Assembly: GCA_951812545.1 (NCBI GenBank)
Contig: OX638317.1
Location: 3,893,987-3,957,986, forward strand
Direction of reading: 5' to 3'
From: an uncultured Latescibacterota bacterium
GTDB taxonomy: Bacteria > Latescibacterota > UBA2968
DNA length: 64,000 nucleotides
Shown piece after piece: positions 1 through 39,116 of this stretch. Under the pieces are notes generated by a model that searched no databases, was not told the DNA's origin, and saw only the letters and a program-made list of their open reading frames with translations. Both the position numbers and the translations under genes were made by a program. Every line of letters starts with the position of its first letter. Position 1 is the first letter of the stretch.

Positions 1-2810
1 GTGCGGTTCAAATTGGCGGGACGAAACTCCTGAGACTGATTGTTGCGCTGCAACCAGGTTGTGGCACCTTTGCCATCCCAGTTGATCAGACTGTTTTCTT
101 CATCCAGCGACCAGTTATTCAACCCTTCCCCTATTTCAAATAGCTCAACCCGGTTGATCGCCTGGTTGCCAAAGGCATTTCCACGTGAAAAGCGCGTAAT
201 ACCATCCATGGGCCGCGGAAACTCTTCGCCCGTATCGCTGCCATTGACAATGCCGGGACCGGAAACACCTTCGCCAACAAAATCACCGTCGCCATTGGAA
301 TCGTGTGTCCACTCATACCAATAATGCGACAAAAAGTTGCCATCGTTATCAATATAGCCGGCATAGTCCCCAAAGTTTGACGGGTTTTTGGTCGTCAGTC
401 TGTCTGGAGAGATATAGTGATTGCCGCGGACGCCCGAGTTGCCATTTTCAACCCACTGCACATTGTAGGCAATCGTGAACGCGGTCATGTAGTTGAATTT
501 CTTTTTGAGCGACAACTCAAAGCCGCGCGTGTCGCGGTTATTCGTCTGACCCGATGCTCGCACGGTTCGGTTGTGCTGCAAACCCTGATCCTGCATCCCG
601 TAAGCGCCACCACTGCGGCGGAAGACCTGTTGCTTATAATACGCCGTCAAACCCGCCGTGTAATCCGTGATGAAGTTCCAGTCTGCACCCACTTCAAAAC
701 TCGTGGTTACCAGCGGCTTGATCTTCGGCCATCCCCACTGCCCCGCATCCACAACATCCAGTGAGTTGTTTATCTCAGACTCGTCAATCCGACCATTCTG
801 GTTCAAATCCAGAAACTCCTCTTCGGTGCGGTAACTGTGAGAGAAAATCCACCAGAACTGCTCGATCTGTTCAAACTTGCCAAAGGTGAAGTGCATCGCA
901 CTACTCTCCGTAATCGGATGCGACACACCCACGCGCGGCGACAACACATGGATTGCTCCCGGGCGGTAGGTCGGGATACCCTCGACCTTTGTCGGATCGT
1001 GATATCTGTAAAACGGAATAAAATGTTCTGACTGTGGCATCTCGGTATTCGGGCTCCAGCGCAAGCCGCGCAAGCCCACATTCACCACAATGCCCTCAAA
1101 CTCCATTTTGTCCTGGAAATACACGGCATACTGACGAGGCACCACGCCGACATTGGGATTGTTGAACTGGCTGTAAAACTGCTCAACCAGACCCCTGAAG
1201 TCGTTTTTGTTGCGGGTGAAACCCCAGTTGTCGTAGAACAAAAAGTCAATACCGGTTTTGATGAAGTGCCCCTTGGTCACCTGGCTCGAATAATCGACCT
1301 TGAGCTGATAGCGGTCGCGCTTTGAATTTGTCCAGTTCACCACCGGGCGGCCAATGTAGAACCAGCCAGAGTCATTGCCAATGCCCGGCTCGACATAAGG
1401 CTGATCTGTATTGAACGGCACTTCCGTATTCACTTCAGATGTGCGGGAATACGAGAATCGAATTTCGTAAAAGGTGCGTGCTGACAGCGTGTGAGTCAAA
1501 GTCACGTAATTTAGAAAATCGCGCGTGCGCCGCTTGCCCGCCCCCGAGTATTCGGTCGGCACAAAGAGGTTGCGGCCAGAAGAGTTCATATTCTTGCGCG
1601 AACCCTGTTCAATGCGCCGAATAACGCCCGCGTTATACCGAGAACGCTGATTGAACAGAGATCCATAGTTAAATCTGATGTTATTACCCGGGCGATACGT
1701 CAGCTTGAAATTCGTGCGGTTGTTGGGCAGTGATACCGCCGTGGGCGCGGGAAAAGACGACGGACTGCGATTCATTGAAGACGTCAGCGTGAAGCCAATT
1801 CTTCTCATAATCGGACCGCCCAGCATTGCTTCGCCGCGACCGCCCCACACGCCCGTGTAATCCTGACGCACGTGAACCTTGCGCTGAACATCGTCGGCGG
1901 CAAACTGAGAATCCGTTATCTCTCCCGTCTGATTGTCGTGCCCCAATGTCCCATCGGGACCGGGATACCACGCTTGCAAGTTTTCCCACTCGGCATTGCC
2001 CCACTGCATCCTGCCGCGATGCACGGGCGATTCATACACATTGTTGCCCCAGTGCTTTTGCCCAGGAGGCGTAATGCGATATTCGCCCCTGCCCGTGTAC
2101 CTCTGACCGCCTTCTTTGGTCACCACCGAAACGACTGAACCCGCATTGCCATACTCCGCGTTCATCCCACCACTCAACACCGTCAGTTCTTGCACGGCAC
2201 TCGTGTTCACGCCTTGAAAACGCGTAAATCCGGCACGCGCATCGTTGTTCACCACGCGCACCCCATCGACCATATACGCCGTCTCCCAGAAGTTGCCACC
2301 GCGAACACTCTCCTCTTCGTCGGGGGTCACGCCTGCCTGCAACTCTACAAAGTCCGACATCTCGCGAATAATTGGCAAAGACTCGATCTCTTCTGCCGTA
2401 ATAACGGACTTACTCTCCGTCTTGTCGTGCTCCACTGCCGGACGCTCGGCAACGACGATCATCTCACCCAATTGCAGCGCTTCCTCCTGCATATCGAAGT
2501 TCACCGTCGTGGTGTGGTCAACATTGACTATCACACCCGTGCGAACAGACTTTGAATACCCCATCATCACCGTTTCAATATCATAGTTTCCCGGCGGGAT
2601 ATTAATGATGAAGTATTCGCCGTTCTCATCGGTGATCCCGGCGCGTTTCACGCCATCGATATCGATCACCACATTGGCACCGGGCAGTGGATCACCTGTA
2701 GTCTCAGTGACCCGTCCACTGATTTTACCCGTTGTGCCCGCTTCTGCCAACCCGGTGCTGATCACCAGGGCGACCAGCAGACCCAGACAACACAATAGTC
2801 GCTTGCTCAT
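1..2810 (-). CDS. TonB-dependent receptor with N-terminal carboxypeptidase-regulatory-like domain (3' end runs off window)
   Basis: Not in ORF track because there is no stop in the window. ATG at 2810 with GGAGGG RBS. Translation MSKRLLCCLGLLVALVISTGLAEAGTTGKISGRVTETTGDPLPGANVVI...GITDENGEYFIINIPPGNYDI; the frame is still open at position 1. Confidence 0.9.
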   Translation of the reverse strand, partial: MSKRLLCCLGLLVALVISTGLAEAGTTGKISGRVTETTGDPLPGANVVIDIDGVKRAGITDENGEYFIINIPPGNYDIETVMMGYSKSVRTGVIVNVDHTTTVNFDMQEEALQLGEMIVVAERPAVEHDKTESKSVITAEEIESLPIIREMSDFVELQAGVTPDEEESVRGGNFWETAYMVDGVRVVNNDARAGFTRFQGVNTSAVQELTVLSGGMNAEYGNAGSVVSVVTKEGGQRYTGRGEYRITPPGQKHWGNNVYESPVHRGRMQWGNAEWENLQAWYPGPDGTLGHDNQTGEITDSQFAADDVQRKVHVRQDYTGVWGGRGEAMLGGPIMRRIGFTLTSSMNRSPSSFPAPTAVSLPNNRTNFKLTYRPGNNIRFNYGSLFNQRSRYNAGVIRRIEQGSRKNMNSSGRNLFVPTEYSGAGKRRTRDFLNYVTLTHTLSARTFYEIRFSYSRTSEVNTEVPFNTDQPYVEPGIGNDSGWFYIGRPVVNWTNSKRDRYQLKVDYSSQVTKGHFIKTGIDFLFYDNWGFTRNKNDFRGLVEQFYSQFNNPNVGVVPRQYAVYFQDKMEFEGIVVNVGLRGLRWSPNTEMPQSEHFIPFYRYHDPTKVEGIPTYRPGAIHVLSPRVGVSHPITESSAMHFTFGKFEQIEQFWWIFSHSYRTEEEFLDLNQNGRIDESEINNSLDVVDAGQWGWPKIKPLVTTSFEVGADWNFITDYTAGLTAYYKQQVFRRSGGAYGMQDQGLQHNRTVRASGQTNNRDTRGFELSLKKKFNYMTAFTIAYNVQWVENGNSGVRGNHYISPDRLTTKNPSNFGDYAGYIDNDGNFLSHYWYEWTHDSNGDGDFVGEGVSGPGIVNGSDTGEEFPRPMDGITRFSRGNAFGNQAINRVELFEIGEGLNNWSLDEENSLINWDGKGATTWLQRNNQSQEFRPANLNR

Positions 2811-28447: not shown

Positions 28448-30133
28448 TCAAACAGACACAATGCGGATATCAACCTCAAATGCACTAACGGGATAATTTA
28501 TACCCCAGGTTTCGAGAACGCTGGGATGCACTTCGCCAATAAGCCCATAAACGCGCTCGCCTATGCGGATCTCGCCACTGCGACCGGACAAAAATGTGGG
28601 ATGATCAATCGGTGCAATAGTGTATTCGAAATTAAAATAATAGGATAACACCTCGAGATAGCTCTGAACGCCAGACAAATTGGCTTCGTCACTCGCTTCG
28701 AGCGCGCAAAGATGAATATCTGTACGCGTGCCGTAATTTTCCCCGGGATCGAGAACCCCCACCTCACCCACCTCAAAAATTCGATGTGGGTACAGCGCAC
28801 GGCGGCTTGTCGCTTCGGTCTTGAGCAAACCGGGCAGCAGCGATCCTCGAATCGCGCTGTAATTTTCGGACATGGGATTTGAGATCGAAATAATCTTTGC
28901 ATCCGGATTATTCATATCCACGGTCTGTTCTTTTTTAGAACAGAGAATCGGCAAAAAGACCTCTTGAAATCCGCTCCCAACCATGAGATTGCGAAACCGA
29001 TCTGCAAGATCCTCTTCTGGCGCGGCTTTGCCAACCGTAAAATCCCGGGGCATCTCGGGTACAAAAGCCTCGTATCCCACACCGATCACAACATCTTCCA
29101 CAATATCTACGGGATGCAAAATATCGTCGCGATAAGGTGCTGGACGCACTTTAATAATCCGGTCTCGTACATCAACATCCCGATAACCCATCGCGTTGAG
29201 CGCGGTCTCAATCTGCCCCATCGAAATATGTGACCCAACCACTTTGTAAATCTCATCTACATCCACCTGCACTGGCTCGGTCAAATCATACGGACAGGTC
29301 AGGACTTGCCCCCTCGGCGTGTGATATGGATAGCGCACGGTTACGGGATAAATACGACCGCCCCGGTCAGCCATATTGACCGCCATAATCGCCATAGACA
29401 AAAGAATAGCATCGAGTTCAGGACCCGTCGCCTCGCAAAACAAAAACGTATCCCCCGCTTCAACGCGCCCCAGGCTCTGACTATTAATAACAGGAGGCAT
29501 CGAAAGAACCTCGCCGCGCGAATCGCGGATCAGGGGAAACTTATCCTTATCCTCGAGAAGATTTGCATACATCCTGCCCGTGGGATGATCGGACAAAATC
29601 TGTCGCAAAGACATCTCCTCCTCAAACTCCAGAGGAACAAAAGCCGTCGCATCGGGATCAACCGCATCGTATCGCACCGGATACACAATATCGGACGCAT
29701 CGTAAATACCAATCGCAACAACGCTGCGACCGCGCCCATACCCATCGGCGAGTTTTTCCTGCGCTTCGATAAGCGCATCAAGTGCCGCATCATCAATCGC
29801 AATACCTTCACATGCAAAAGCAGCAATATAGGGACGGATATTTCGCAACCCGGGATCGACAATAACCTCCCGTTCTTGCGACACGTCAGATGCATCAAAA
29901 AAAGAATAATCCAGTTGAACATTCTCTCGATGGCTTTTGAGCAACCGCGCAAGCCCCTCTCCCGACCACAAATCGGGGCGGTTGGTATCTTTGAGCTGAA
30001 TGCGAAGCGTATCCCCATCTTCAGCATCAATCTCTGCCTTCGCAGTTTCGAGGGCAGCACTCAGGCTCTCCAAAGAATAAGCCTGTCCCGCGAGACGTTC
30101 AAAATCGGGTTTATTAACTGTAATCGTTGGCAT
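28448..30133 (-). CDS. pheT: Phenylalanine--tRNA ligase beta subunit, archaeal/eukaryotic type (561 aa)
   Basis: MPTITV start, DTNRPDLWS, SMPPVINS, RDDILHPVDIVEDV; lacks the bacterial B2 and anticodon-binding domains. Confidence 0.93.
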   Translation of the reverse strand: MPTITVNKPDFERLAGQAYSLESLSAALETAKAEIDAEDGDTLRIQLKDTNRPDLWSGEGLARLLKSHRENVQLDYSFFDASDVSQEREVIVDPGLRNIRPYIAAFACEGIAIDDAALDALIEAQEKLADGYGRGRSVVAIGIYDASDIVYPVRYDAVDPDATAFVPLEFEEEMSLRQILSDHPTGRMYANLLEDKDKFPLIRDSRGEVLSMPPVINSQSLGRVEAGDTFLFCEATGPELDAILLSMAIMAVNMADRGGRIYPVTVRYPYHTPRGQVLTCPYDLTEPVQVDVDEIYKVVGSHISMGQIETALNAMGYRDVDVRDRIIKVRPAPYRDDILHPVDIVEDVVIGVGYEAFVPEMPRDFTVGKAAPEEDLADRFRNLMVGSGFQEVFLPILCSKKEQTVDMNNPDAKIISISNPMSENYSAIRGSLLPGLLKTEATSRRALYPHRIFEVGEVGVLDPGENYGTRTDIHLCALEASDEANLSGVQSYLEVLSYYFNFEYTIAPIDHPTFLSGRSGEIRIGERVYGLIGEVHPSVLETWGINYPVSAFEVDIRIVSV

Positions 30134-30149
30134 TTTTACTCCTGCTATC

Positions 30150-31688
30150 CTATCGCGTATTCCTGACCAAATCCAAATCCGTACTGAACAAATCGCGTAT
30201 ATCGTTAATACCCAGCGCAACCATCGCCATGCGATCAACCCCCAACCCCCAGGCAATAACCGGAACATCCACACCCAGCGGTTGCGTAAGCTCGGGACGA
30301 AAAAGACCCGCGCCACCGAGTTCGATCCAGCCGAGAACAGGATGTTTCGCCTGAAGTTCGACCGAAGGCTCGGTAAAAGGAAAATAATCGGGCACATAGC
30401 GCACATCTTCGGATTGTGCGATCTCAAGAGCAAACAGCTTGAGCAAACCGAGCAAACTGCGAAAATTTATTTCCTCGCCCAGAACAATACCCTCAGCCTG
30501 AAAAAAATCTGCCGCGTGCGTGGCATCGACATCATCCGGACGAAAACAACGCGCAAGAGCGAAATACTTACCCGGGATATTCGGCTCTGAAGCAAGCGCA
30601 CGTCCCGAAAGCGCAGTGCCCTGACTCCGCAAAATAAGGCGGCGCGACTGTTCGGGATTAAATTCATAACGCCACCCGCGCGAACCAGTATCCCCCCCGT
30701 TTTGATGCGCCTCAGCCACCCTGGAAAAATGGGGTTCCTCGGCTTCTCGGGATTGCGTCGGCTCTGTAACATAATACGCATCGTGAATATTGCGCGCCGC
30801 GTGGAACTGCGGCATAAAAAGGGCATCCATATTCCAAAATTCTGTTTCGACCAGCGAACCTTTCATCTCTTCAAAACCGAGCGCCATCAACCGGCGCCGC
30901 ACATTGTCCAGATAAGCCCGATAGGGATGGTGCTTCCCAATAAGCACGCGCGGCGGCTTAATCGACAGATCATATCGGCGAAAAGACGCACCCTGCCATG
31001 TGCCTTTCTGAATCATTTCGGACGTAAGACGAGAAATTTCATCGCCCGTGAGATTGGCTTTGACAACCTCCACAAGCACGCGCTGTCCTTCTCCTGTAAG
31101 GCGATAAATCCGCTCCGTGCGCTCATCCAAACGAACAGGCCCCCTGCCCCCGCCGCGTTTGCGGGCATTGGCTTCAATATATTGGACAATATCACCGGGA
31201 AAATCATCAATCTCAATTCCAGCATCGGAAAATTTCTCAAATAATTCTGGCATCAGTCGATCAACAAAAAAAGAAGCACGCTCTGCATCGACAATAACAA
31301 CAGCCCCCTTGTCCAGATCGATAATCCCATCCTTTTTCAAACCACCAAAAGCACTGCCCCAGGCACCTCTGTCAAAACGCTCGTCGGCCTGCAAATCTTG
31401 AATCCCAACGCGCTCTGCGCTCGCCCGGGTCAAAAGCGCAGTCTCTGGCGTCGCACCCTTTGAAGCAAAATCCCGTCCCACTTCTGTAAGTGAAACAGTC
31501 ACGCGCGTATTTTCTCCAGTAACTTCGAGCAACTGCTTGGAAATCAACCACTCAACCGCGCGTCGAACCTGTCCCTCGCCGAGACCCGCACCACTTTGAA
31601 GTTGTGCATCGGACTGCTCGGCACTGGCATTATTCTCATATACACGCAAAATGCGAATTTCGAGAGCATGTAAAGATGCGAGATCCAT
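30150..31688 (-). CDS. pheS: Phenylalanine--tRNA ligase alpha subunit, archaeal/eukaryotic type (512 aa)
   Basis: Long N-terminal extension; FWNMDALFMPQFHAAR, YFPFTEPS, AWGLGVDR. Confidence 0.95.
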   Translation of the reverse strand: MDLASLHALEIRILRVYENNASAEQSDAQLQSGAGLGEGQVRRAVEWLISKQLLEVTGENTRVTVSLTEVGRDFASKGATPETALLTRASAERVGIQDLQADERFDRGAWGSAFGGLKKDGIIDLDKGAVVIVDAERASFFVDRLMPELFEKFSDAGIEIDDFPGDIVQYIEANARKRGGGRGPVRLDERTERIYRLTGEGQRVLVEVVKANLTGDEISRLTSEMIQKGTWQGASFRRYDLSIKPPRVLIGKHHPYRAYLDNVRRRLMALGFEEMKGSLVETEFWNMDALFMPQFHAARNIHDAYYVTEPTQSREAEEPHFSRVAEAHQNGGDTGSRGWRYEFNPEQSRRLILRSQGTALSGRALASEPNIPGKYFALARCFRPDDVDATHAADFFQAEGIVLGEEINFRSLLGLLKLFALEIAQSEDVRYVPDYFPFTEPSVELQAKHPVLGWIELGGAGLFRPELTQPLGVDVPVIAWGLGVDRMAMVALGINDIRDLFSTDLDLVRNTR

Positions 31689-31719
31689 TAATAGAAACTC
31701 CAATGTTAGTATTAAAAAC

Positions 31720-31985
31720 AAAAAAGCCCCTTCGTCATCATAGGGACGAAAGAGCTTTTCGCGGTACCACCCTATTTGCGCTTAAAAGCACCACTCAGTA
31801 GATGGCTGTCACCATCCTGCCCATTGTCGGCGGACCCACCGGCTCGGCTTAATAGGAAACTATCTTTCCATTCGGCTTTGCAGCTCGGGAGGGAACTTCA
31901 CCTGTGCATCCTGCAGATGTGCTTTCAGCCCAGGACACATCCTCTCTATCCAGTTGGGAACAGGCTACTTTTCTCCGTCATTGCT
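31720..31985 (-). ncRNA. T-box riboswitch with Phe (UUC) specifier
   Basis: GA motif, AGUA, AGAGA and GCUGA distal motifs, GAAG-UUC specifier (31895-31893), T-box AAAUAGGGUGGUACCGCG (31777-31760) pairing with CGUCCCU, and a terminator with U-tract. Confidence 0.95.
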
Positions 31986-31995
31986 TTGAGGGCGA

Positions 31996-32024
31996 AACAT
32001 AGAAATTTACGCTACAAGTGTCAA
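31996..32024 (-). promoter_or_regulatory. Sigma70 promoter of the T-box-pheST operon
   Basis: TTGACA-N17-TATGTT immediately 5' of the T-box. Confidence 0.75.
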
Positions 32025-32040
32025 GCCGAAAGTCGCAAAT

Positions 32041-34587
32041 CTATCCGCCAACCGTTTTTCCAAAAACCTGGACGAACATAAGAAAATCGGGGAAATCAAC
32101 ACTACCGTTCCCATCGATATCGTATTGAGCCTCGGACGATCCAAATGCACCCACAAACAGGAGAAAATCGGCAAAGTCGATTGTGCCATCTCTGTTAAAA
32201 TCCGATTTGGCTTCCACCGAAAGCGGCTGGACAACGCCAGAAATCGTCAGCATAAACCTCGCGCGGTCCGGATCATTGCTCAAAATATTGATACGACCCG
32301 AAAACTCGCCTTCCATAGGTTTGGGAAACGTAATCGTAACCGTCTGTGAACCCTCTGGCGCCAGCGTAAACATAGAAGGTTCAAACGTCAAACCCGGCAA
32401 ATCGCTCTCTATACCCGTAATCTCCAACGGCGCAGTACCCGTATTCTCAATAGTAAAAGTCTTTTGAACCGCCTTCTCAGCATCAATACTCCCGAAATCA
32501 ATAGCCGGTTCCCCCACAACCAGCACCGGTGCAGGTGCCGCCTGCACGATCACAGAAACGGATAATGTCTGTGTTGCGCGTTCCGGATCATTGCTCGAAA
32601 TATTGATATTCCCTGAAAACGTGCCCGCTGTCGAACTCGGAAACGTCACTGTCACTGTCTGTGAACCACCAGCTTCCAGTGTGAACATCATAGTATCAAA
32701 CGTCAATCCCGACACATTGCTCTCAATACCTGTAATCTCCAACGGCGCTGTACCCGTATTCGTAATCGTAATCATCTGCTGAACCGTTTTCGCCACCTCA
32801 ACAGTACCAAAGTCAATTGCGGATTCCTGAACTGCAATCGCCGGCACAGGTAGCGGTTGAACGATCACAGAAACGGATAATGTCTGTGTTGCACGATCCG
32901 GGTCATTACTCAAAATAGAGATACTTCCCGAAAACGTCCCTACCGTCGAACTCGGAAACGTCACCGTCACCGTCTGCGAACCTTCTAGCTCCAGCGTGAA
33001 CATAGAAGGCTCAAACGTCAAACCCGGCACATCGCTCTCAATACCCGTGATCTCCAACGGCGCTGTACCCGTATTTTGAACCGTGAAAGTTTTTTGAACC
33101 GTCTGTGCCACCTCAACAGTACCAAAATCAATCGCCGTTTGCTGAACCGCAATCACCGGCACAGGTAGCGGTTGAACGATCACAGACACGGATAAAGTCC
33201 GTGTTGCGCGATCCGGATCATTACTCGAAATCGTGATACTACCCGAAAACGTCCCTACCGTCGAACTCGGAAACGTAATCGTCACTGTGCGCGAACCATT
33301 GGGTGCCAGCGTAAACATAGAAGGCGTAAACATCAAACCCGGCACATCGCTCTCAATACCCGTAATCTCCAACGTTGCAGTACCCGTGTTCATAATCGCA
33401 ATCGTCTGTTGACCTGTTTGGCCTGCCTCAACAGTACCGAAATTAACCGCCGTTTGCTGAACCGCAATCACCGGCACTGGAGGCGGTTGCACGATCACAG
33501 AAACGGATAATGTCTGTGTTGCACGTTCCGGGTCGTTACTCGAAATAGTGATATTTCCCGAAATCGTGCCCTCCGTAGAACTCGGAAACGTCACCGTCAC
33601 TGTGCGTGAACTGTTGGGTTCCAGTGTGAACGTAGAAGGCTCAAACGTCAATCCCGACACATTACTCTCGATACCCGTAATCTCAAGGGGTGCAGTTCCC
33701 GTATTTTGGACTGTGAAAGTCTCTTGAATCGGTTGTGCAAACGCAACAGTACCGAAATCAACTGCCGTTTGCTGAACAGCGATCACCGGCACAGGGGGAG
33801 GTTGAACGATACCAGAAACGGATAATGTTTGTGTTGCACGATCCGGATCATTACTCGAAATAGTGATACTACCCAAAATTTCGCCCTCCGTGGCGTTGGG
33901 CAACGTCACAGTAACAGTCTGTGAACCGTTGGGTACCAGCGTGAACATAGACGGATCAAATGTCAAACCCGGCACATCGCTCTCAATACCCGTAATCTCC
34001 AACGTTGCAGTACCCGTGTTCTCAATCGTAATCTTCTGTTCACCCGGTTGACCTGCGTCAATCGTGCCGAAATCAACTGCTGTTTGCTGCACAGCGATGA
34101 CAGGTGCAGGTGGCGGTAGTTGCGCCAACAGTTCATTAACCTTGTTTTTCACGCTTGTAACAGAACTTGAACTCAGACTACCCGTGGCGGGTAATGCCAC
34201 AGTCCCATTGGGACCAACAACAACGAAGTTCTCGTACGAGGCAGGAGCAGAACCACCCGCATCTAAAAGCATGGGAAAGGTGATACCTCCGTTCCTGCGA
34301 AAGCCATCAACCTGTGACTGACTACCATTCCAGGCATCGAGACCGAGCATCTCAACATTGGGATTTGATTTATAATCTTGCCATAAACCTTCGAGTCGCG
34401 GACCCGCGGCTCTACAGGTCGGTCAGCCATATCCAATAATCGCAAGCACGAGCACTTTGCCGCGATAGTCAGAAGCACTATATGTCTTGCCATCGAGGCC
34501 CCGTAGAGAAAAATTAACCGTTTGTGCAGAGGCAGCCCCAACGAGCAAAAGCAGAATCATCGGGATGGATAATAGATATTGGCGCAT
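32041..34587 (-). CDS. Putative secreted selenoprotein: UxxC redoxin + 6 Ig-like (choice-of-anchor D/ASH-like) repeats + dockerin/EF-hand tail (848 aa)
   Basis: ATG 34587, signal peptide, SDYRGKVLVLAIIGYG-UGA(34425-34423)-PTC, in frame with the 769-aa ORF; SECIS-like hairpin follows. Confidence 0.85.
32200..34105 (-). repeat. Six intragenic ~315-bp tandem repeats (Ig-like domains)
   Basis: Each unit reads P(V/A)xAVQxTAxDFG...NTGTA(P/T)LEITGIES...SNDP(D/E)RA. Confidence 0.92.
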
Positions 34588-34646
34588 GGCATTTATCCTT
34601 CATATATTGGTGAAAGGGAAGATATATTTGTTAAGCGATAGATCTC

Positions 34647-35636
34647 CTATCCACCAACCTTTCTTCCAAAAGAATCGACAAAGAGGAGAAAATCGGACAA
34701 ACCGACCACACCATCGCCATCGATATCGTATGTGGAATCGGTTGATCCAAATGCATTCACAAATAAAAGAAAATCGGTAATATTAACTTCTTTATCTCTA
34801 TTAAAATCGGCCTTGGGATTGGCAAAATGGCCCTGGATTATTATAGAAACGGATAAGGTATGCATCGCGCGGTTCGGATCATTGCTCAAAATGTTAATAA
34901 GCCCCGAAAACTCCCCTGCAGTCGAACCTGGAAACACGATCATAACCGCAGCCGAACTATCAGGAGATAGTGTAAACATAGAAGGCTCAAACGTCAAACC
35001 CGGCACATCGCTCTCAATACCCGTAATCTCAAGGGGAGCCGTACCCGTATTTGTGATCGTAATAGTTTGTTGATCTGTTTGACCAGCATCAATAGTGCCG
35101 AAATCAACTGCCGTTTGCTGCACAGCGATCACTGGCATCTGGGGTATTTGTCTTAACAGATTCTCAACCACTGCTTCTGTTGATCCAGCAGAAATGGATG
35201 ATCTCAAACCGCTTTTTGACAATCCCACAATCCCATCGTGACCAACGACAATGAGATCCTCCATATTAAATGGGGTACCTGCTATTCGACCTGCGTTTAG
35301 AAGCAAGGGAAAGGTGACACCCGTCCTATTCTTAAAAGACTGAACCTGAGACCGCTTGCCATTCCAAATATCGAGACCAAACATCTTAACATTGGGGTTA
35401 TTTTCATACTTTTCCCAAAACGCTTTGAGTGAGGGACCCGCCCCCAGACAGCTTCCTCAACTCCACCCAAAGGCCGCCAGCACGATCACTTTGCCGCGAT
35501 AGTCAGAAGTGCTATGTGTATTACCGTCAAGGTCCTGTAGGGAAAAATCAGCAATCGGTTGCCCGACAGTTGCGGCAGAAGTAGATCCAACGAGCAGAAG
35601 TAAAATCATCGGGATGGACAATAGATATTGGCGCAT
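34647..35636 (-). CDS. Putative secreted selenoprotein: UxxC redoxin + 1 Ig-like domain + dockerin/EF-hand tail (329 aa)
   Basis: ATG 35636, SDYRGKVIVLAAFGWS-UGA(35459-35457)-GSC, in frame with the 245-aa ORF; paralog of the adjacent gene. Confidence 0.85.
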
Positions 35637-35683
35637 GGTATTTATCCTCATATATTGATGAAAGTAGTGACAACCAAAACCTT

Positions 35684-35716
35684 CTGGATCGCGGCTAAAA
35701 CCATGCCGCGATGACG
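35684..35716. repeat. CGTC-type REP-like hairpin
   Basis: CTGGATCGCGGCTAAAACCATGCCGCGATGACG. Confidence 0.85.
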
Positions 35717-35819
35717 ATTGCTATATTGGGCCCCTCAATAATGTATTACCTTCACTAAAGGTTATCAACGCTTCAATCTAACAGAAGTTTCTCCACGGGT
35801 CAACTGCAAGGAGTGAGCA

Positions 35820-36659
35820 ATGGACATCCTCACCGATCAAAAAAAATCGTTTTTTGATACCTTTGGATTTCTCGCATTTCCAGATTTATTGGCAGATTGC
35901 ATCGACGAAATTATCGATGCTTTTGAAGCGATATGGAATCAACGGGGTGGGGGACACAACGGGCAACCGCACGACGGCATGCGTCGATCGTGCATTGTGC
36001 CATTTATTGACCAGCACGAACGGCTGTGCGCGCTATTAGATGATCCGCGGATAAAAGAAATCCTGGTCGGATTACTGGGTGAAAATTTCAACTACATGGG
36101 ATCAGACGGAAATTATTATGCTGGAGACACGCAATGGCATTCGGATGGCTGGGGCAAGGAAATACGATTTGTAAAAATAGCCCTGTACCTGGATCCCCTA
36201 ACGCGCGACACGGGTTGTTTGCGCGTCATTCCGGGAAGTCACCATCTCAAAGATCAATACGCAAATGATATTGAAAACACCGTCCGAAACTCCCACGACC
36301 AATGGAGCATTCACGGACCAGAAGTCCCTGCATTAGCGCTGGAAACCAATCCGGGCGATGTCGTCGTATTCAATCACAACTTAAAACACGCGGCCTTTGG
36401 CGGCAGTCCGCGTCGGCGAATGTTCACCATCAACTGCAGCGAACGCTTCCCTGAAGATGAAGAACACATTGCACTATTAAAAACACAGATTGCCGCACGC
36501 GCGCGGTTCTGGAACGATCGCGCTTACGGAAAAATCATGCTCGCAACCGCTGGTCCCGAACGCAAAAAACATCTGACACAAGTCATGGCACACGACGATC
36601 ACCTCGCCGAACTCTCCGCACGCGCAAGAGAAGAAATGCCCGAGCCATCGCGAGGATAA
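35820..36659 (+). CDS. Phytanoyl-CoA dioxygenase (PhyH) family protein
   Basis: WHSD, GCLRVIPGSH, PGDVVVFNHNLKH, RRMF. Confidence 0.9.
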   Translation: MDILTDQKKSFFDTFGFLAFPDLLADCIDEIIDAFEAIWNQRGGGHNGQPHDGMRRSCIVPFIDQHERLCALLDDPRIKEILVGLLGENFNYMGSDGNYYAGDTQWHSDGWGKEIRFVKIALYLDPLTRDTGCLRVIPGSHHLKDQYANDIENTVRNSHDQWSIHGPEVPALALETNPGDVVVFNHNLKHAAFGGSPRRRMFTINCSERFPEDEEHIALLKTQIAARARFWNDRAYGKIMLATAGPERKKHLTQVMAHDDHLAELSARAREEMPEPSRG

Positions 36660-36926: not shown

Positions 36927-37307
36927 ATGAGCAAACGCGATGCAGAGAGCGTAGAATCCTCGCAACAAGAAGTCCAATCCGATTCCAATACAGGTGGCGA
37001 AACACAAACAGAAAAACTGGATTTCAGAATGGAAACTTCGCCACAAGATTCACTGGTGAAAATTGTGTATTGGATCCCAGAAGCGGTTTATTCAGACTCT
37101 GTCTTTGTAGAACTCGATTTCTTTAATAGTCAGGGCGCAAGGGCGGCCAAACTGGTCAACAAAACACACGCGCCGGGCTCTTATACGACGTTCTTATCTA
37201 AACAGGGACTTCCCGACGGAATATACTTTGTGAGACTACACGCAAACCGATCAGACAAAAATGCCCAGGTACGAAAATTGAATCTAATTTGGACAGAAAG
37301 AAAGTGA
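36927..37307 (+). CDS. Hypothetical protein resembling a stand-alone FlgD-Ig/T9SS-CTD-like domain
   Basis: VELDFFNSQGA...LPDGIYFVRL...RKLNL pattern. Confidence 0.6.
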   Translation: MSKRDAESVESSQQEVQSDSNTGGETQTEKLDFRMETSPQDSLVKIVYWIPEAVYSDSVFVELDFFNSQGARAAKLVNKTHAPGSYTTFLSKQGLPDGIYFVRLHANRSDKNAQVRKLNLIWTERK

Positions 37308-37315
37308 GGCTCAAC

Positions 37316-38599
37316 ATGTATTTCAACAAGCGCAAACTAATATTTAGTCTGGTGATATGTCTGAGTGCATATTCCGTGTGTTTTGCACAACAGCCAACCC
37401 ATTCTAAAGAAGAAATGAAGCGGTTTAATCAATTTAGGAGCGGATACCCTTTCGAAACCACAGAACAGTACTGGGAGAGCATTCTGGGACTGGAGCAACT
37501 ACTTGTCGATTATCCCAACACCTTTTTGAAAGGCGACATCGCCATCACCCTGTTGAATTATTACCAACACGTCACCGATGATCCACACCTGTTGATAGAG
37601 CTATCTGACAGAATGCTCGCATTGCGGATGCATGCCAATGGCACTTATGAAACGGCTGCTCGGATACTCGTGGACAAGAAAGTGAAATCTGATAAGACAC
37701 TTCTGTATGCACAGAACGCATTAAAAGAAGCGCTGCAGAACCAGAAAAAATGGGAAAATTACGGTAAAAGAGAATTAATCTGCCGGGATCTATTAGCGCG
37801 TGCTTATCAACTCCTTGGACAACACGACCGCGCTGTCACAGAAATAAAAACTGTGATTCGCGGTTGGCAAACACGAGAAGATTTAGGCAACCTGGAACTG
37901 GCATCACGACAGGCATCTGTAGATAAAGCAAAAACCCACTTGCTTCGGATCTATATCGACCAAAAAGCATGGAAAACTGCTTATGAACTCGCCTCAGAAC
38001 TATTGCTAACCTCAGTCACACGCCGAGATATTGCAGAACTGTGGAGCCAGGCTTATGTTGGCAAACACGGCTCAGGTGCGAGAATGAGCAAAGCTTATGC
38101 TACCTTAAAATCCGAGTGGGATAAGAAAATCATCCAAAGCGTCGAAAAAAAACGCATTTCACGCCCCGCACCCACCTTTGAAGTCCAAAAACTGGACGGT
38201 GAGAAAATCACTTCCGCAGACTTAAAAGGCAAAGCTTTGGTACTAACATTTTGGGCGGGATGGTGCAGCCCGTGCATTGAAGAACTGCCCTATCTCCAAA
38301 ACCTCAAAACGCAATTTCTCAAGCAAAATGTCGAATTTTTAGCGATAAATATCGACCAGGACAGCTCAACACGCCGGGACATGGTCGCCAGCTTTCGGTA
38401 CCAGAACGCACCGCTCTTAACCTTTGCGTTGGGCGATCTGGAAATGCGAAAAGCGTTTGGCTCTGCCGAGATTCCCTATACCTGTATCATCGATCAGAAC
38501 GGACAGATTCGATATGAACGCAAGGGATTAGGTGCTGATTTCAGCGTGGCAATGGCGCATCAATTGCAATGGGTCATAGGAATGAACGAAACACAGTAA
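37316..38599 (+). CDS. TlpA-family thiol:disulfide oxidoreductase with N-terminal TPR-like region
   Basis: Signal peptide; LKGKALVLTFWAGWCSPCIEELP; IPYT cis-Pro. Confidence 0.88.
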   Translation: MYFNKRKLIFSLVICLSAYSVCFAQQPTHSKEEMKRFNQFRSGYPFETTEQYWESILGLEQLLVDYPNTFLKGDIAITLLNYYQHVTDDPHLLIELSDRMLALRMHANGTYETAARILVDKKVKSDKTLLYAQNALKEALQNQKKWENYGKRELICRDLLARAYQLLGQHDRAVTEIKTVIRGWQTREDLGNLELASRQASVDKAKTHLLRIYIDQKAWKTAYELASELLLTSVTRRDIAELWSQAYVGKHGSGARMSKAYATLKSEWDKKIIQSVEKKRISRPAPTFEVQKLDGEKITSADLKGKALVLTFWAGWCSPCIEELPYLQNLKTQFLKQNVEFLAINIDQDSSTRRDMVASFRYQNAPLLTFALGDLEMRKAFGSAEIPYTCIIDQNGQIRYERKGLGADFSVAMAHQLQWVIGMNETQ

Positions 38600-38695: not shown

Positions 38696-38724
38696 TTGCA
38701 TGTGTACAAATAAAGTTGTACAAT
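38696..38724 (+). promoter_or_regulatory. TA promoter with overlapping operator palindrome
   Basis: TTGCAT-N17-TACAAT; TGTACAA-N6-TTGTACA. Confidence 0.7.
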
Positions 38725-38729
38725 TGAAT

Positions 38730-39116
38730 ATGCCTGACCGAGAATACATCTTATTTGAAGGTGATCAATACACTATTGAATGGTATTACGGATCAAATGG
38801 TAAAAGTCAGGCCCTAACATATTTTAATCGCTTAGACCGGAGACAAAAAATAAAACTTATTAAGCTGGTCGAGATAATGGGCACGATAGGTGTTATCAGA
38901 AATAAGCAACAGTTCAATTATGAGGGGAATGGTATTTATGCTTTTAAGCCTCAACCCAATCGTTTTCTCTGTTTTTTTTATTCAGAAAAGAAAATTATTG
39001 TAACCAATGCCTTTCAGAAGAAAACTCAGAAACTGCCAAAAGGGGAAAGGGAAAGAGCTTTGCGGACGAAAGCAGATTATGAGCAGCGAGTTGAGAGGAG
39101 ATGCTATTATGAATAA
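38730..39116 (+). CDS. RelE/HigB-like (Gp49-type) toxin
   Basis: GIYAFK...RFLCFF...IIVTNAFQKKTQKLP. Confidence 0.87.
   Translation: MPDREYILFEGDQYTIEWYYGSNGKSQALTYFNRLDRRQKIKLIKLVEIMGTIGVIRNKQQFNYEGNGIYAFKPQPNRFLCFFYSEKKIIVTNAFQKKTQKLPKGERERALRTKADYEQRVERRCYYE

Follow-up and report, generated by a model that had tools for sequence, protein, structure and literature searches.

Bacterial redoxins in which selenocysteine (Sec, U) takes the place of the first Cys of the CxxC motif have been predicted before: 'Prx-like thiol:disulfide oxidoreductase' and 'thiol-disulfide isomerase-like protein' stand among the predicted selenoprotein families in Table 1 of PMC13188914, and 'Prx-like 1' and 'Prx-like 3' among those in Table 2 of PMC2398784. 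Here we describe a tandem pair of predicted selenoprotein genes, A and B, in a 64,000-nt stretch of DNA from an uncultured Latescibacterota bacterium (assembly GCA_951812545.1, contig OX638317.1, positions 3,893,987 to 3,957,986; hereafter the window, in whose coordinates features are given). As in the Prx-like UxxC families tabulated in those two sources, both genes match PF00578 and PF08534, Sec would be the first residue of UxxC, and Cys homologs are abundant; compared by description only, those families differ in that no signal peptide, immunoglobulin (Ig)-like stalk and dockerin are given for them. Since UxxC redoxins (PF00578, PF08534, cd02966) are already listed as predicted families in the tables of PMC13188914 and PMC2398784, the catalytic core is of a known kind and the sense of novelty in the original prediction has to be moderated; only the architecture, i.e., signal peptide, Sec-redoxin, variable Ig stalk and dockerin, appears undescribed. 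The titles and abstracts of the literature on selenoproteins and dockerins or on Latescibacteria, with supplements and the contents of the selenoprotein database outside their scope, held no description of a redoxin-Ig-dockerin protein, nor does the main text of the BSepDB paper, taken apart from its supplements and database content, mention one.

With TlpA, ResA and CcmG (DsbE), the two proteins share a thioredoxin fold, an N-terminal extension, an active site at the beginning of helix 1, a conserved proline loop, and, as predicted, an export signal, but they would use Sec in place of the attacking Cys, have no membrane anchor, and carry Ig repeats and a dockerin in addition; the cytochrome c or Sco context of those proteins was not seen here. 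Etrx1 and Etrx2 of Streptococcus pneumoniae (4hqz, 2yp6), which are among the fold and profile matches and are exposed lipoprotein thioredoxins by their entry titles, offer a precedent for a TlpA-like redoxin at the cell surface; their anchor, however, is a lipid rather than a dockerin, they use Cys rather than Sec, and an Ig stalk is absent. At the C-terminus, the likeness is to cellulosomal and non-cellulosomal dockerin proteins, which have the same duplicated calcium-loop-plus-helix terminal module, with Dockerin_1 scores above cut-off and a dockerin fold. In contrast to the cellulosomal proteins, whose cargo is a carbohydrate-active enzyme, the cargo here would be a selenium redox enzyme. 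Gram-positive cellulosomes use S-layer-homology or sortase anchors; the putative cohesin carriers of this genome are without them and end in type IX sorting domains instead.

Taken together, the explanation that we judge likely is one in which the in-frame UGAs are decoded as Sec and the products are modular redox proteins whose dockerins may tether them. The genes and their parts, all on the minus strand, are as follows.

34647..35636, minus: gene A, 329 codons plus TAG (34647-34649); signal peptide, Sec-redoxin, one Ig-like domain, dockerin tail
35571..35636, minus: signal-peptide-like N-terminus of A (MRQYLLSIPMILLLLVGSTSAA), read from the sequence
35457..35459, minus: UGA as Sec, U60 of A, first position of UGSC, codon 60 from ATG 35636
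35142..35567, minus: TlpA/ResA-like thioredoxin-fold domain of A, residues ~24-165 (profile and model)
34842..35141, minus: single Ig-like domain of A (HYDIN/VesB, choice-of-anchor D; Pfam, NCBIfam)
34650..34823, minus: dockerin-like C-terminal tail of A, two calcium-loop-plus-helix segments (Pfam and model)
32041..34587, minus: gene B, 848 codons plus TAG (32041-32043); signal peptide, Sec-redoxin, six Ig-like repeats, dockerin tail
34423..34425, minus: UGA as Sec, U55 of B, first position of UPTC, codon 55 from ATG 34587
34108..34524, minus: TlpA/ResA-like thioredoxin-fold domain of B (profile and family alignment)
32267..34117, minus: six tandem Ig-like repeats of B (Tandem Repeats Finder: 315-nt unit, 5.9 copies, 78% matches)
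32044..32253, minus: dockerin-like C-terminal tail of B (six-frame scan and alignment)

In-frame UGA codons at the redoxin active site

Genes A and B are separated by 59 nt, and their 5' regions and signal peptides are near-identical. Gene A starts at ATG 35636, which is preceded 8 nt upstream by GAGGA; an alternative ATG at 35651 would add five residues. Translation with table 11 cuts each gene into a short open reading frame (ORF) of 54-64 aa and a long one of 245 aa (A) or 769 aa (B). Read through its single TGA, gene A encodes 329 residues with the motif FGWS-U-GSC (W-S-U-G-S-C); gene B, read through in the same way, encodes 848 residues with IGYG-U-PTC (Y-G-U-P-T-C). The claim from which this work started, that the two TGAs (35459-35457 and 34425-34423) occupy the position of the first Cys of a redoxin CxxC, was verified in both genes. 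Equally correct was the observation that the long downstream ORF is in frame with the TGA and has its first ATG, counted from the first TGA base, 75 nt downstream in each gene, and that the flanking codons are unlike between the paralogs; GCGGGTCC downstream is common to both. The claimed architecture likewise stood up: the N-terminus reads as signal-peptide-like, and profiles and models gave a UxxC thioredoxin fold, one or six Ig-like repeats and a dockerin-like tail. A third paralog elsewhere in the genome (C1:3706549-3707022; positions 1483-2784, plus strand, of the extracted locus L018; 433 aa) has YN-U-GTC together with two Ig domains and a dockerin-like tail, and also a hairpin with a GGUC loop.

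The host genome is a single 5.94-Mb contig, and the Sec machinery presupposed by the original prediction is all present in it. Profile matches above curated cut-offs identified selA (483.9 bits), selB directly after it (387.8 bits) and selD (361.8 bits), the last itself with one in-frame TGA, and a tRNA-Sec (anticodon tca) lies ~100 nt from selD. This tRNA is the sole UGA-reading tRNA that aragorn reported in the genome. TGA is an ordinary stop codon here, closing 782 of the 1937 open frames with ≥ 400 codons.

Homologs were compared in an alignment of 53 frames drawn from 50 loci. In each of the 44 frames that contain the TGA, it occupies the column of the first CxxC Cys, and all nine frames without TGA have Cys there; an unrelated residue, the outcome that would have spoken against Sec, never occurs at this position. 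The TGA column is shared down to ~30% identity, with conserved sequence on both flanks, and the Cys forms are uninterrupted. Four of the nine Cys frames belong to close homologs with the identical redoxin-Ig-dockerin layout, and one Cys form stands in tandem with a Sec form and retains the same downstream hairpin sequence, suggesting a recent Sec/Cys exchange. Among 61 genomes (60 relatives and the host), a redoxin match at E ≤ 1e-8 was found in 55 and a SelA match in 57. The one genus without a SelA match (two genomes) is also one in which the redoxin was not found in either genome; two incomplete genomes (91% and 80% complete) have the TGA form and no SelA match. A wider sample, an even selection of 151 genomes of the phylum, gave 132 matches at E ≤ 1e-15. 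An in-frame TGA is present in 127 of them and absent from four, and one has a TAA only; the position of the TGA in the Cys column was verified for the 44 aligned frames only. These matches come from 82 of the 151 genomes, all in four families of one class, and at the same threshold no match was found in the 36 genomes of ten other families of the sample. A genus-level ortholog (L038, G005:C1:3769338-3769796) has two TGAs and one TAA inside the match and no aligned N-terminus; this copy may be decaying.

Were the TGAs true stops, the products of each gene would be a peptide of 54-64 aa and, from the internal ATG, a second, separate 'choice-of-anchor D' protein, or else both genes would be decaying pseudogenes. 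Protein databases do hold downstream pieces only, and the two hairpins considered below are not individually significant. Against true stops stands the fold: in the AlphaFold2 model of the domain (pLDDT 88.9), which is a thioredoxin fold, U60 lies at the start of helix 61-77 with strand 50-56 before it, so that the UGA splits one thioredoxin fold, neither piece of which could fold alone. That this split recurs at one column in every TGA homolog over so wide a range of identity, with the Cys forms uninterrupted and complete Sec machinery in the genome, argues in the same direction, and we consider true stops very improbable. Readthrough of the UGA as a residue other than Sec, whether by genome-wide TGA reassignment or by near-cognate Trp or Cys suppression, strikes us as just as remote. 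The inserted residue is not decidable from sequence alone, which leaves this explanation some room, but the use of TGA to end so many long frames of the genome speaks against reassignment, many homologs in the family themselves terminate at TGA, tRNA-Sec is the only reader of UGA found, the codon sits at the catalytic Cys column, a classic site of Sec/Cys exchange, and a hairpin with G23 and U24 follows it. Decoding of the in-frame UGA as Sec by SelB and tRNA-Sec is thus predicted and well supported, and A and B are very probably real, intact selenoprotein genes that were previously mis-annotated.

The window's own public entry is the 245-aa downstream fragment (100% identity, 74% of the query); a search for related loci with a single protein returned one close named relative (82% identity) and four distant redoxins. 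A protein collection yielded 102 relatives (E ≤ 1e-10), none of which combines a redoxin Pfam domain with Ig domains; those named by NCBI are called 'choice-of-anchor D domain-containing protein', and homolog records are labelled Gemmatimonadetes or Candidatus Latescibacteria. Since the public sets lack the catalytic domain and hold fragments only, an enzyme family that is conserved and multi-copy has remained invisible to annotation. Contigs from two metatranscriptome libraries span both TGAs (35287-35698, 35370-35692 and 34261-34662), with no variant listed for the TGA positions. Because metatranscriptome libraries can contain DNA, from which such contigs may come, they are only a weak hint of transcription, and a transcript that crosses a UGA does not show decoding.

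The hairpin downstream of the UGA

In the proposed mechanism, a hairpin in the coding sequence, with G23 and U24 in its apical loop, would direct SelB and tRNA-Sec to the UGA. For the selenocysteine insertion sequence (SECIS) of E. coli, PMC8659212 describes an upper stem-loop of nt 15-31 at a distance of 11 nt from the UGA, with three conserved nucleotides, U17, G23 and U24, of which the first two are contacted by SelB. The candidate elements of the two genes, with positions counted from the U of UGA, are:

35430..35446, minus: SECIS-like hairpin of A, stem +14..+19 / +25..+30, loop C20 G21 G22 G23 U24 (constrained fold, -10.1 kcal/mol)
34393..34412, minus: SECIS-like hairpin of B, stem +14..+21 / +26..+33, loop G22 G23 U24 C25 (-16.0 kcal/mol, constrained fold, identical 63-mer)

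The pairs of the gene A hairpin run from U14-A30 to G19-C25; the gene B stem consists of G14-C33, A15-U32, G16-C31, a C17/A30 mismatch, C18-G29, G19-C28, C20-G27 and G21-C26. Both hairpins start 10 nt after the TGA, and G23 and U24 are unpaired in both. The hairpins that the original prediction placed about 10 nt after each TGA were found in both genes: in gene B the hairpin is the minimum-free-energy fold; in gene A, the minimum-free-energy fold is another pairing and the hairpin forms under constraint. The shared GCGGGUCC had been put forward as further support for a SECIS. The string is indeed shared, but it is weaker evidence than was assumed, since it consists partly of the Ala-Gly-Pro codons of a protein motif that is present in the Cys-form homologs too.

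The better evidence comes from the family. Over 42 distinct Sec-form sequences, the hairpin centred on +23/+24 averages -11.3 kcal/mol, versus -6.8 kcal/mol for synonymous recodings; no more than 5% of recodings match or beat the natural hairpin in 20 of the 42, and no more than 1% in 10. Two of eight Cys forms reach the 5% level, one of them being the tandem copy beside a Sec form. GGUC occupies +22..+25 in 35 of the 42 Sec forms. Codon choice in the loop core is nearly fixed in the family, Ala being GCG in 30 of 30 cases, Gly GGT in 37 of 38 and Pro CCG in 34 of 40, against genome-wide shares of 0.31, 0.24 and 0.27, respectively. The Cys codon four codons upstream of the loop core is split between TGT (26) and TGC (17), which indicates that synonymous sites are generally free to vary. 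As a positive control, host selD (C1:4072692-4073817, minus strand; CGG-U-ASK) has after its Sec codon a hairpin of -14.8 kcal/mol with GGU in the loop at +24..+26.

Several results count against a SECIS at this position or are neutral. The hairpin of gene A appears only when the fold is centred on +23/+24, the unconstrained optimum being a different pairing. Dinucleotide shuffles gave z-scores of -0.92 and -1.36 for the two hairpins, neither being individually significant, and a fold at least as good is reached by 24% (A) and 10% (B) of synonymous recodings. On a 43-sequence alignment, RNAalifold gave no consensus structure, and an Rfam scan of 31500-36500 at E ≤ 10 returned no SECIS family, only an unrelated T-box and a chance snoRNA match. 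The Ala-Gly-Pro motif is also under constraint at the protein level. An 8-bp helix held in fixed register pairs only 66% of cells, although this is above every slid register (37-54%) and 499 of 500 shuffles; its covariation score is 0.199, with 0.149 for shuffles, only 1 of 500 of which attained it. Since the loop register differs among subfamilies, a fixed register fits poorly, and constrained folds were therefore calculated for each sequence. When the whole 45-mer is compared with synonymous recodings by its minimum free energy, Sec forms (mean z -1.34) separate only weakly from Cys forms (-0.86).

On balance, the element reads as a probably genuine SECIS whose stem register has drifted between subfamilies, a reading drawn from folding and codon use. 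It shares with the E. coli fdhF-type SECIS, as far as that element is described in PMC8659212, its place in the coding sequence ~11 nt past the UGA, the apical G23/U24 and an irregularity at +17; the irregularity, however, is in gene B a C/A mismatch, the sole mismatch of the stem, and not a bulged U. A further difference is that the stem register here varies by subfamily and that the Rfam SECIS model has no match. So compact an in-frame element, with a GCG-GGU-CCG core that also encodes Ala-Gly-Pro, would constitute a natural series of variants on which SelB recognition could be studied.

The redoxin domain and its Ig stalk

At the N-terminus of both genes, Pfam identified AhpC-TSA (PF00578; 46.3 bits in A and 46.1 in B, cut-off 26) and Redoxin (PF08534; 35.7 and 37.6 bits, cut-off 26.6). 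A profile built from 25 family members found its nearest solved structures among TlpA/ResA-type proteins (2ls5, 1.4e-21; 3kcm; ResA/4nmu), and Foldseek placed thiol-disulfide oxidoreductases on top (2ls5, 4nmu, ResA), with pneumococcal Etrx2 also matched. U/C60, C63 and P110, the last of which we take to be the cis-proline, are invariant in the 25 sequences, as is the Gly three residues before U (G57). The family models of NCBIfam argue against a closer assignment, since neither the ResA (NF002854; 42.7 bits, cut-off 170) nor the TlpA model (NF047696; 19 bits, cut-off 230) was reached; with scores so far under the cut-offs, the domain is a TlpA-like relative that is an ortholog of neither. The 'UGSC-containing' GOS family, as it is described in PMC2398784, was considered for gene A and rejected, that family being without a Pfam domain and gene A matching PF00578 and PF08534.

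Since the active site of peroxiredoxins, as given in PMC13188914, is PxxxTxxU, with Thr/Ser three residues before the catalytic one, the invariant G57 in place of the Thr/Ser of PxxxT/SxxC(U) led us to reject peroxiredoxin identity. A role as a thiol (selenol) peroxidase that removes peroxides rather than as a disulfide reductase has some points in its favor, the best Pfam family being AhpC-TSA at 46 bits and the peroxiredoxins AhpE and Bcp being among the structural matches. Sec is, moreover, typical of peroxidases. We nevertheless regard this role as unlikely, given the Gly where peroxiredoxins carry Thr/Ser, a UxxC motif with both residues at the start of the helix as in TlpA/ResA, and leading structural and profile matches that are thiol-disulfide oxidoreductases. 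The domain is probably an extracytoplasmic thiol-disulfide oxidoreductase, and, as with its TlpA/ResA relatives, a reductase role is the most likely one. All 53 aligned homologs have a basic and then hydrophobic N-terminal stretch ending in Ala-x-Ala, which reads as a signal peptide, and export from the cytoplasm by way of this Sec-type (secretory) signal is predicted. A product with a cleavable signal peptide and a TlpA/ResA-like domain with a U-x-x-C centre (a selenenylsulfide/selenol-thiol couple) is well supported as a prediction, and Sec would make the attacking nucleophile more reactive.

Between the redoxin and the tail, Pfam detected HYDIN/VesB-like Ig stretches, one in A and six in B, and NCBIfam names the repeats 'choice-of-anchor D'. 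They may serve as a spacer ahead of the dockerin module, their number setting the reach of the redox head from its scaffold. The number varies: gene-B-type orthologs within the genus have open frames of 415 to 1695 aa, corresponding to ~2 to 14 repeats at ~105 aa each, and in one relative the redoxin is joined directly to the dockerin with zero Ig domains. The Ig repeats (32041-34350 and 34647-35384, minus strand) also match the NCBIfam entry 'OS_HP2 family (seleno)protein', at 170.9 bits in B with a cut-off of 100; that domain contains Sec in other organisms, and the repeats here are without TGA.

The dockerin tail, cellular location and neighbouring genes

The tail, i.e., the last ~60 residues, is the most conserved part of the family. 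It contains two D-x-D/N-x-D/N-G loops and, after each, an F-rich helix, with D and F invariant. In the Pfam scan of the read-through proteins, Dockerin_1 was reported for A alone. Dockerin_1 matched above its cut-off of 22.9 bits in a six-frame scan (A, 27.1; B, 23.7) and on the isolated tail of A (28.1); across the family, EF-hand_1 was found in 25 of 25 tails and Dockerin_1 in 20 of 25. The tail was modelled with two helices (pLDDT 89.1), and the best 17 PDB matches returned by Foldseek are all dockerins, headed by 2y3n_B (E 2.2e-4, TM-scores 0.72/0.83), whereas EF-hand proteins of the calmodulin type gave TM-scores below 0.3 against the model.

Dockerins are common in this genome, with 65 Dockerin_1 matches (E ≤ 0.01), whose place is either just behind a signal peptide or the very C-terminus. 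In the 40 of the 65 carriers that were profiled, eukaryote-like repeats dominate (~ten leucine-rich repeat (LRR) proteins and several WD40 propellers), beside CARDB, fn3 and cadherin giants; enzymes include a subtilase, a matrixin-like protease, two GH113-like proteins, a chondroitinase B-like lyase, a sulfatase, a formylglycine-generating-enzyme-like protein and a Cys-type redoxin with an N-terminal dockerin. This redoxin (C1:4528419-4529135; Redoxin 88.7 bits) and its paralog (C1:4247877-4248593, minus strand), both of 239 aa, represent a second mode of redoxin-dockerin attachment in the same genome. A set that joins matrix-degrading enzymes, adhesin-like repeats and redox enzymes under one tag points to a surface assembly unlike the classical cellulosome.

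A dockerin would tether the enzyme to proteins that bear cohesins, and a search of the genome did find cohesin-like modules, as the original prediction had anticipated. Two of these stand immediately before Por_Secre_tail domains. The two carriers, 2104 and 1249 aa long, hold two of just four such domains found in the genome; since they end in type IX sorting domains, these two would sit on the cell surface. The region C1:5106932-5119311 contains three large genes with C-terminal type IX sorting domains, two of them with a cohesin-like module and one with a dockerin as well. In one relative, a C-terminus resembling FlgD_ig (34.6 bits) and Por_Secre_tail (21.1 bits, under the cut-off) replaces the dockerin. 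A complex prediction for the tail alignment and one cohesin-like module scored 0.03, below the mark, and counts neither way.

Other points weigh against docking at the surface. The genome has only six cohesin matches (E ≤ 0.01), three of them above cut-off, and these are weak (19-33 bits); two were not recovered in the whole-protein Pfam scan at E ≤ 1e-4. We know of no route across the outer membrane for dockerin-tailed proteins without a type IX sorting domain and of no extracellular reductant. A and B might instead be genuine selenoproteins of the periplasm, recycled by a DsbD-type transporter, with a tail that serves calcium binding or periplasmic assembly. The genome does contain one homolog of a DsbD-type (DsbD_TM) membrane electron transporter (C1:4986051-4986683), both proteins carry a Sec-type signal peptide only and lack a type IX sorting domain, the cohesin matches are, as stated, weak, and to our knowledge all characterised TlpA/ResA relatives work at the outer face of the cytoplasmic membrane. 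On the other hand, the tail has the fold of a dockerin and not of a calmodulin-type protein, the dockerins of this genome are carried by proteins expected outside the cell (sulfatase, GH113, chondroitinase B-like lyase, subtilase, LRR and cadherin/fn3 proteins), two cohesin-like modules lie beside type IX sorting domains, and one relative has the FlgD_ig/Por_Secre_tail-like C-terminus where the others have a dockerin. We therefore view a periplasmic location as a real but lesser possibility, and display at the surface through dockerin-cohesin pairing as plausible, if somewhat short of probable. Surface display would place a Sec catalyst outside the cytoplasm, or outside the cell altogether, on a modular scaffold, and it raises the question of how the enzyme is re-reduced there.

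The window, or sequence near-identical to it, occurs in sequencing runs from 10 studies, including one DNA run (0.59 of sampled words) labelled 'sponge metagenome'. A tentative scenario, which we think rather unlikely in its full extent, is that this Latescibacteria-labelled class from sponge-labelled metagenomes keeps a Sec enzyme outside the cell, docked on type IX-anchored cohesin carriers at strain-specific distances (0 to ~14 Ig repeats), where its task would be disulfide reduction or the detoxification of oxidants in the host matrix, next to sulfatases, lyases, proteases and eukaryote-like repeat proteins that are docked as well. Were this scenario true, it would give the first described selenoenzyme tethered by a cohesin-dockerin pair and the first extracellular bacterial selenium redox catalyst.

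Around the gene pair, the window holds several other features. The Cys-type redoxin reported nearby by the original prediction was confirmed and is given for context only:

37289..38599, plus: Cys-type redoxin (WCSPC) with a long N-terminal extension

A small Gp49-like (DUF891) ORF (38700-39116, plus strand) lies near it, and gene A and a PhyH-type dioxygenase gene (35820-36659) are divergent. Gene B is directly followed by a full-length T-box leader (RF00230; 31739-31990, minus strand; 104.7 bits, gathering score 93), with a terminator-like hairpin at 31760-31721, upstream of pheS and pheT (30150-31721 and 28448-30433, minus strand).

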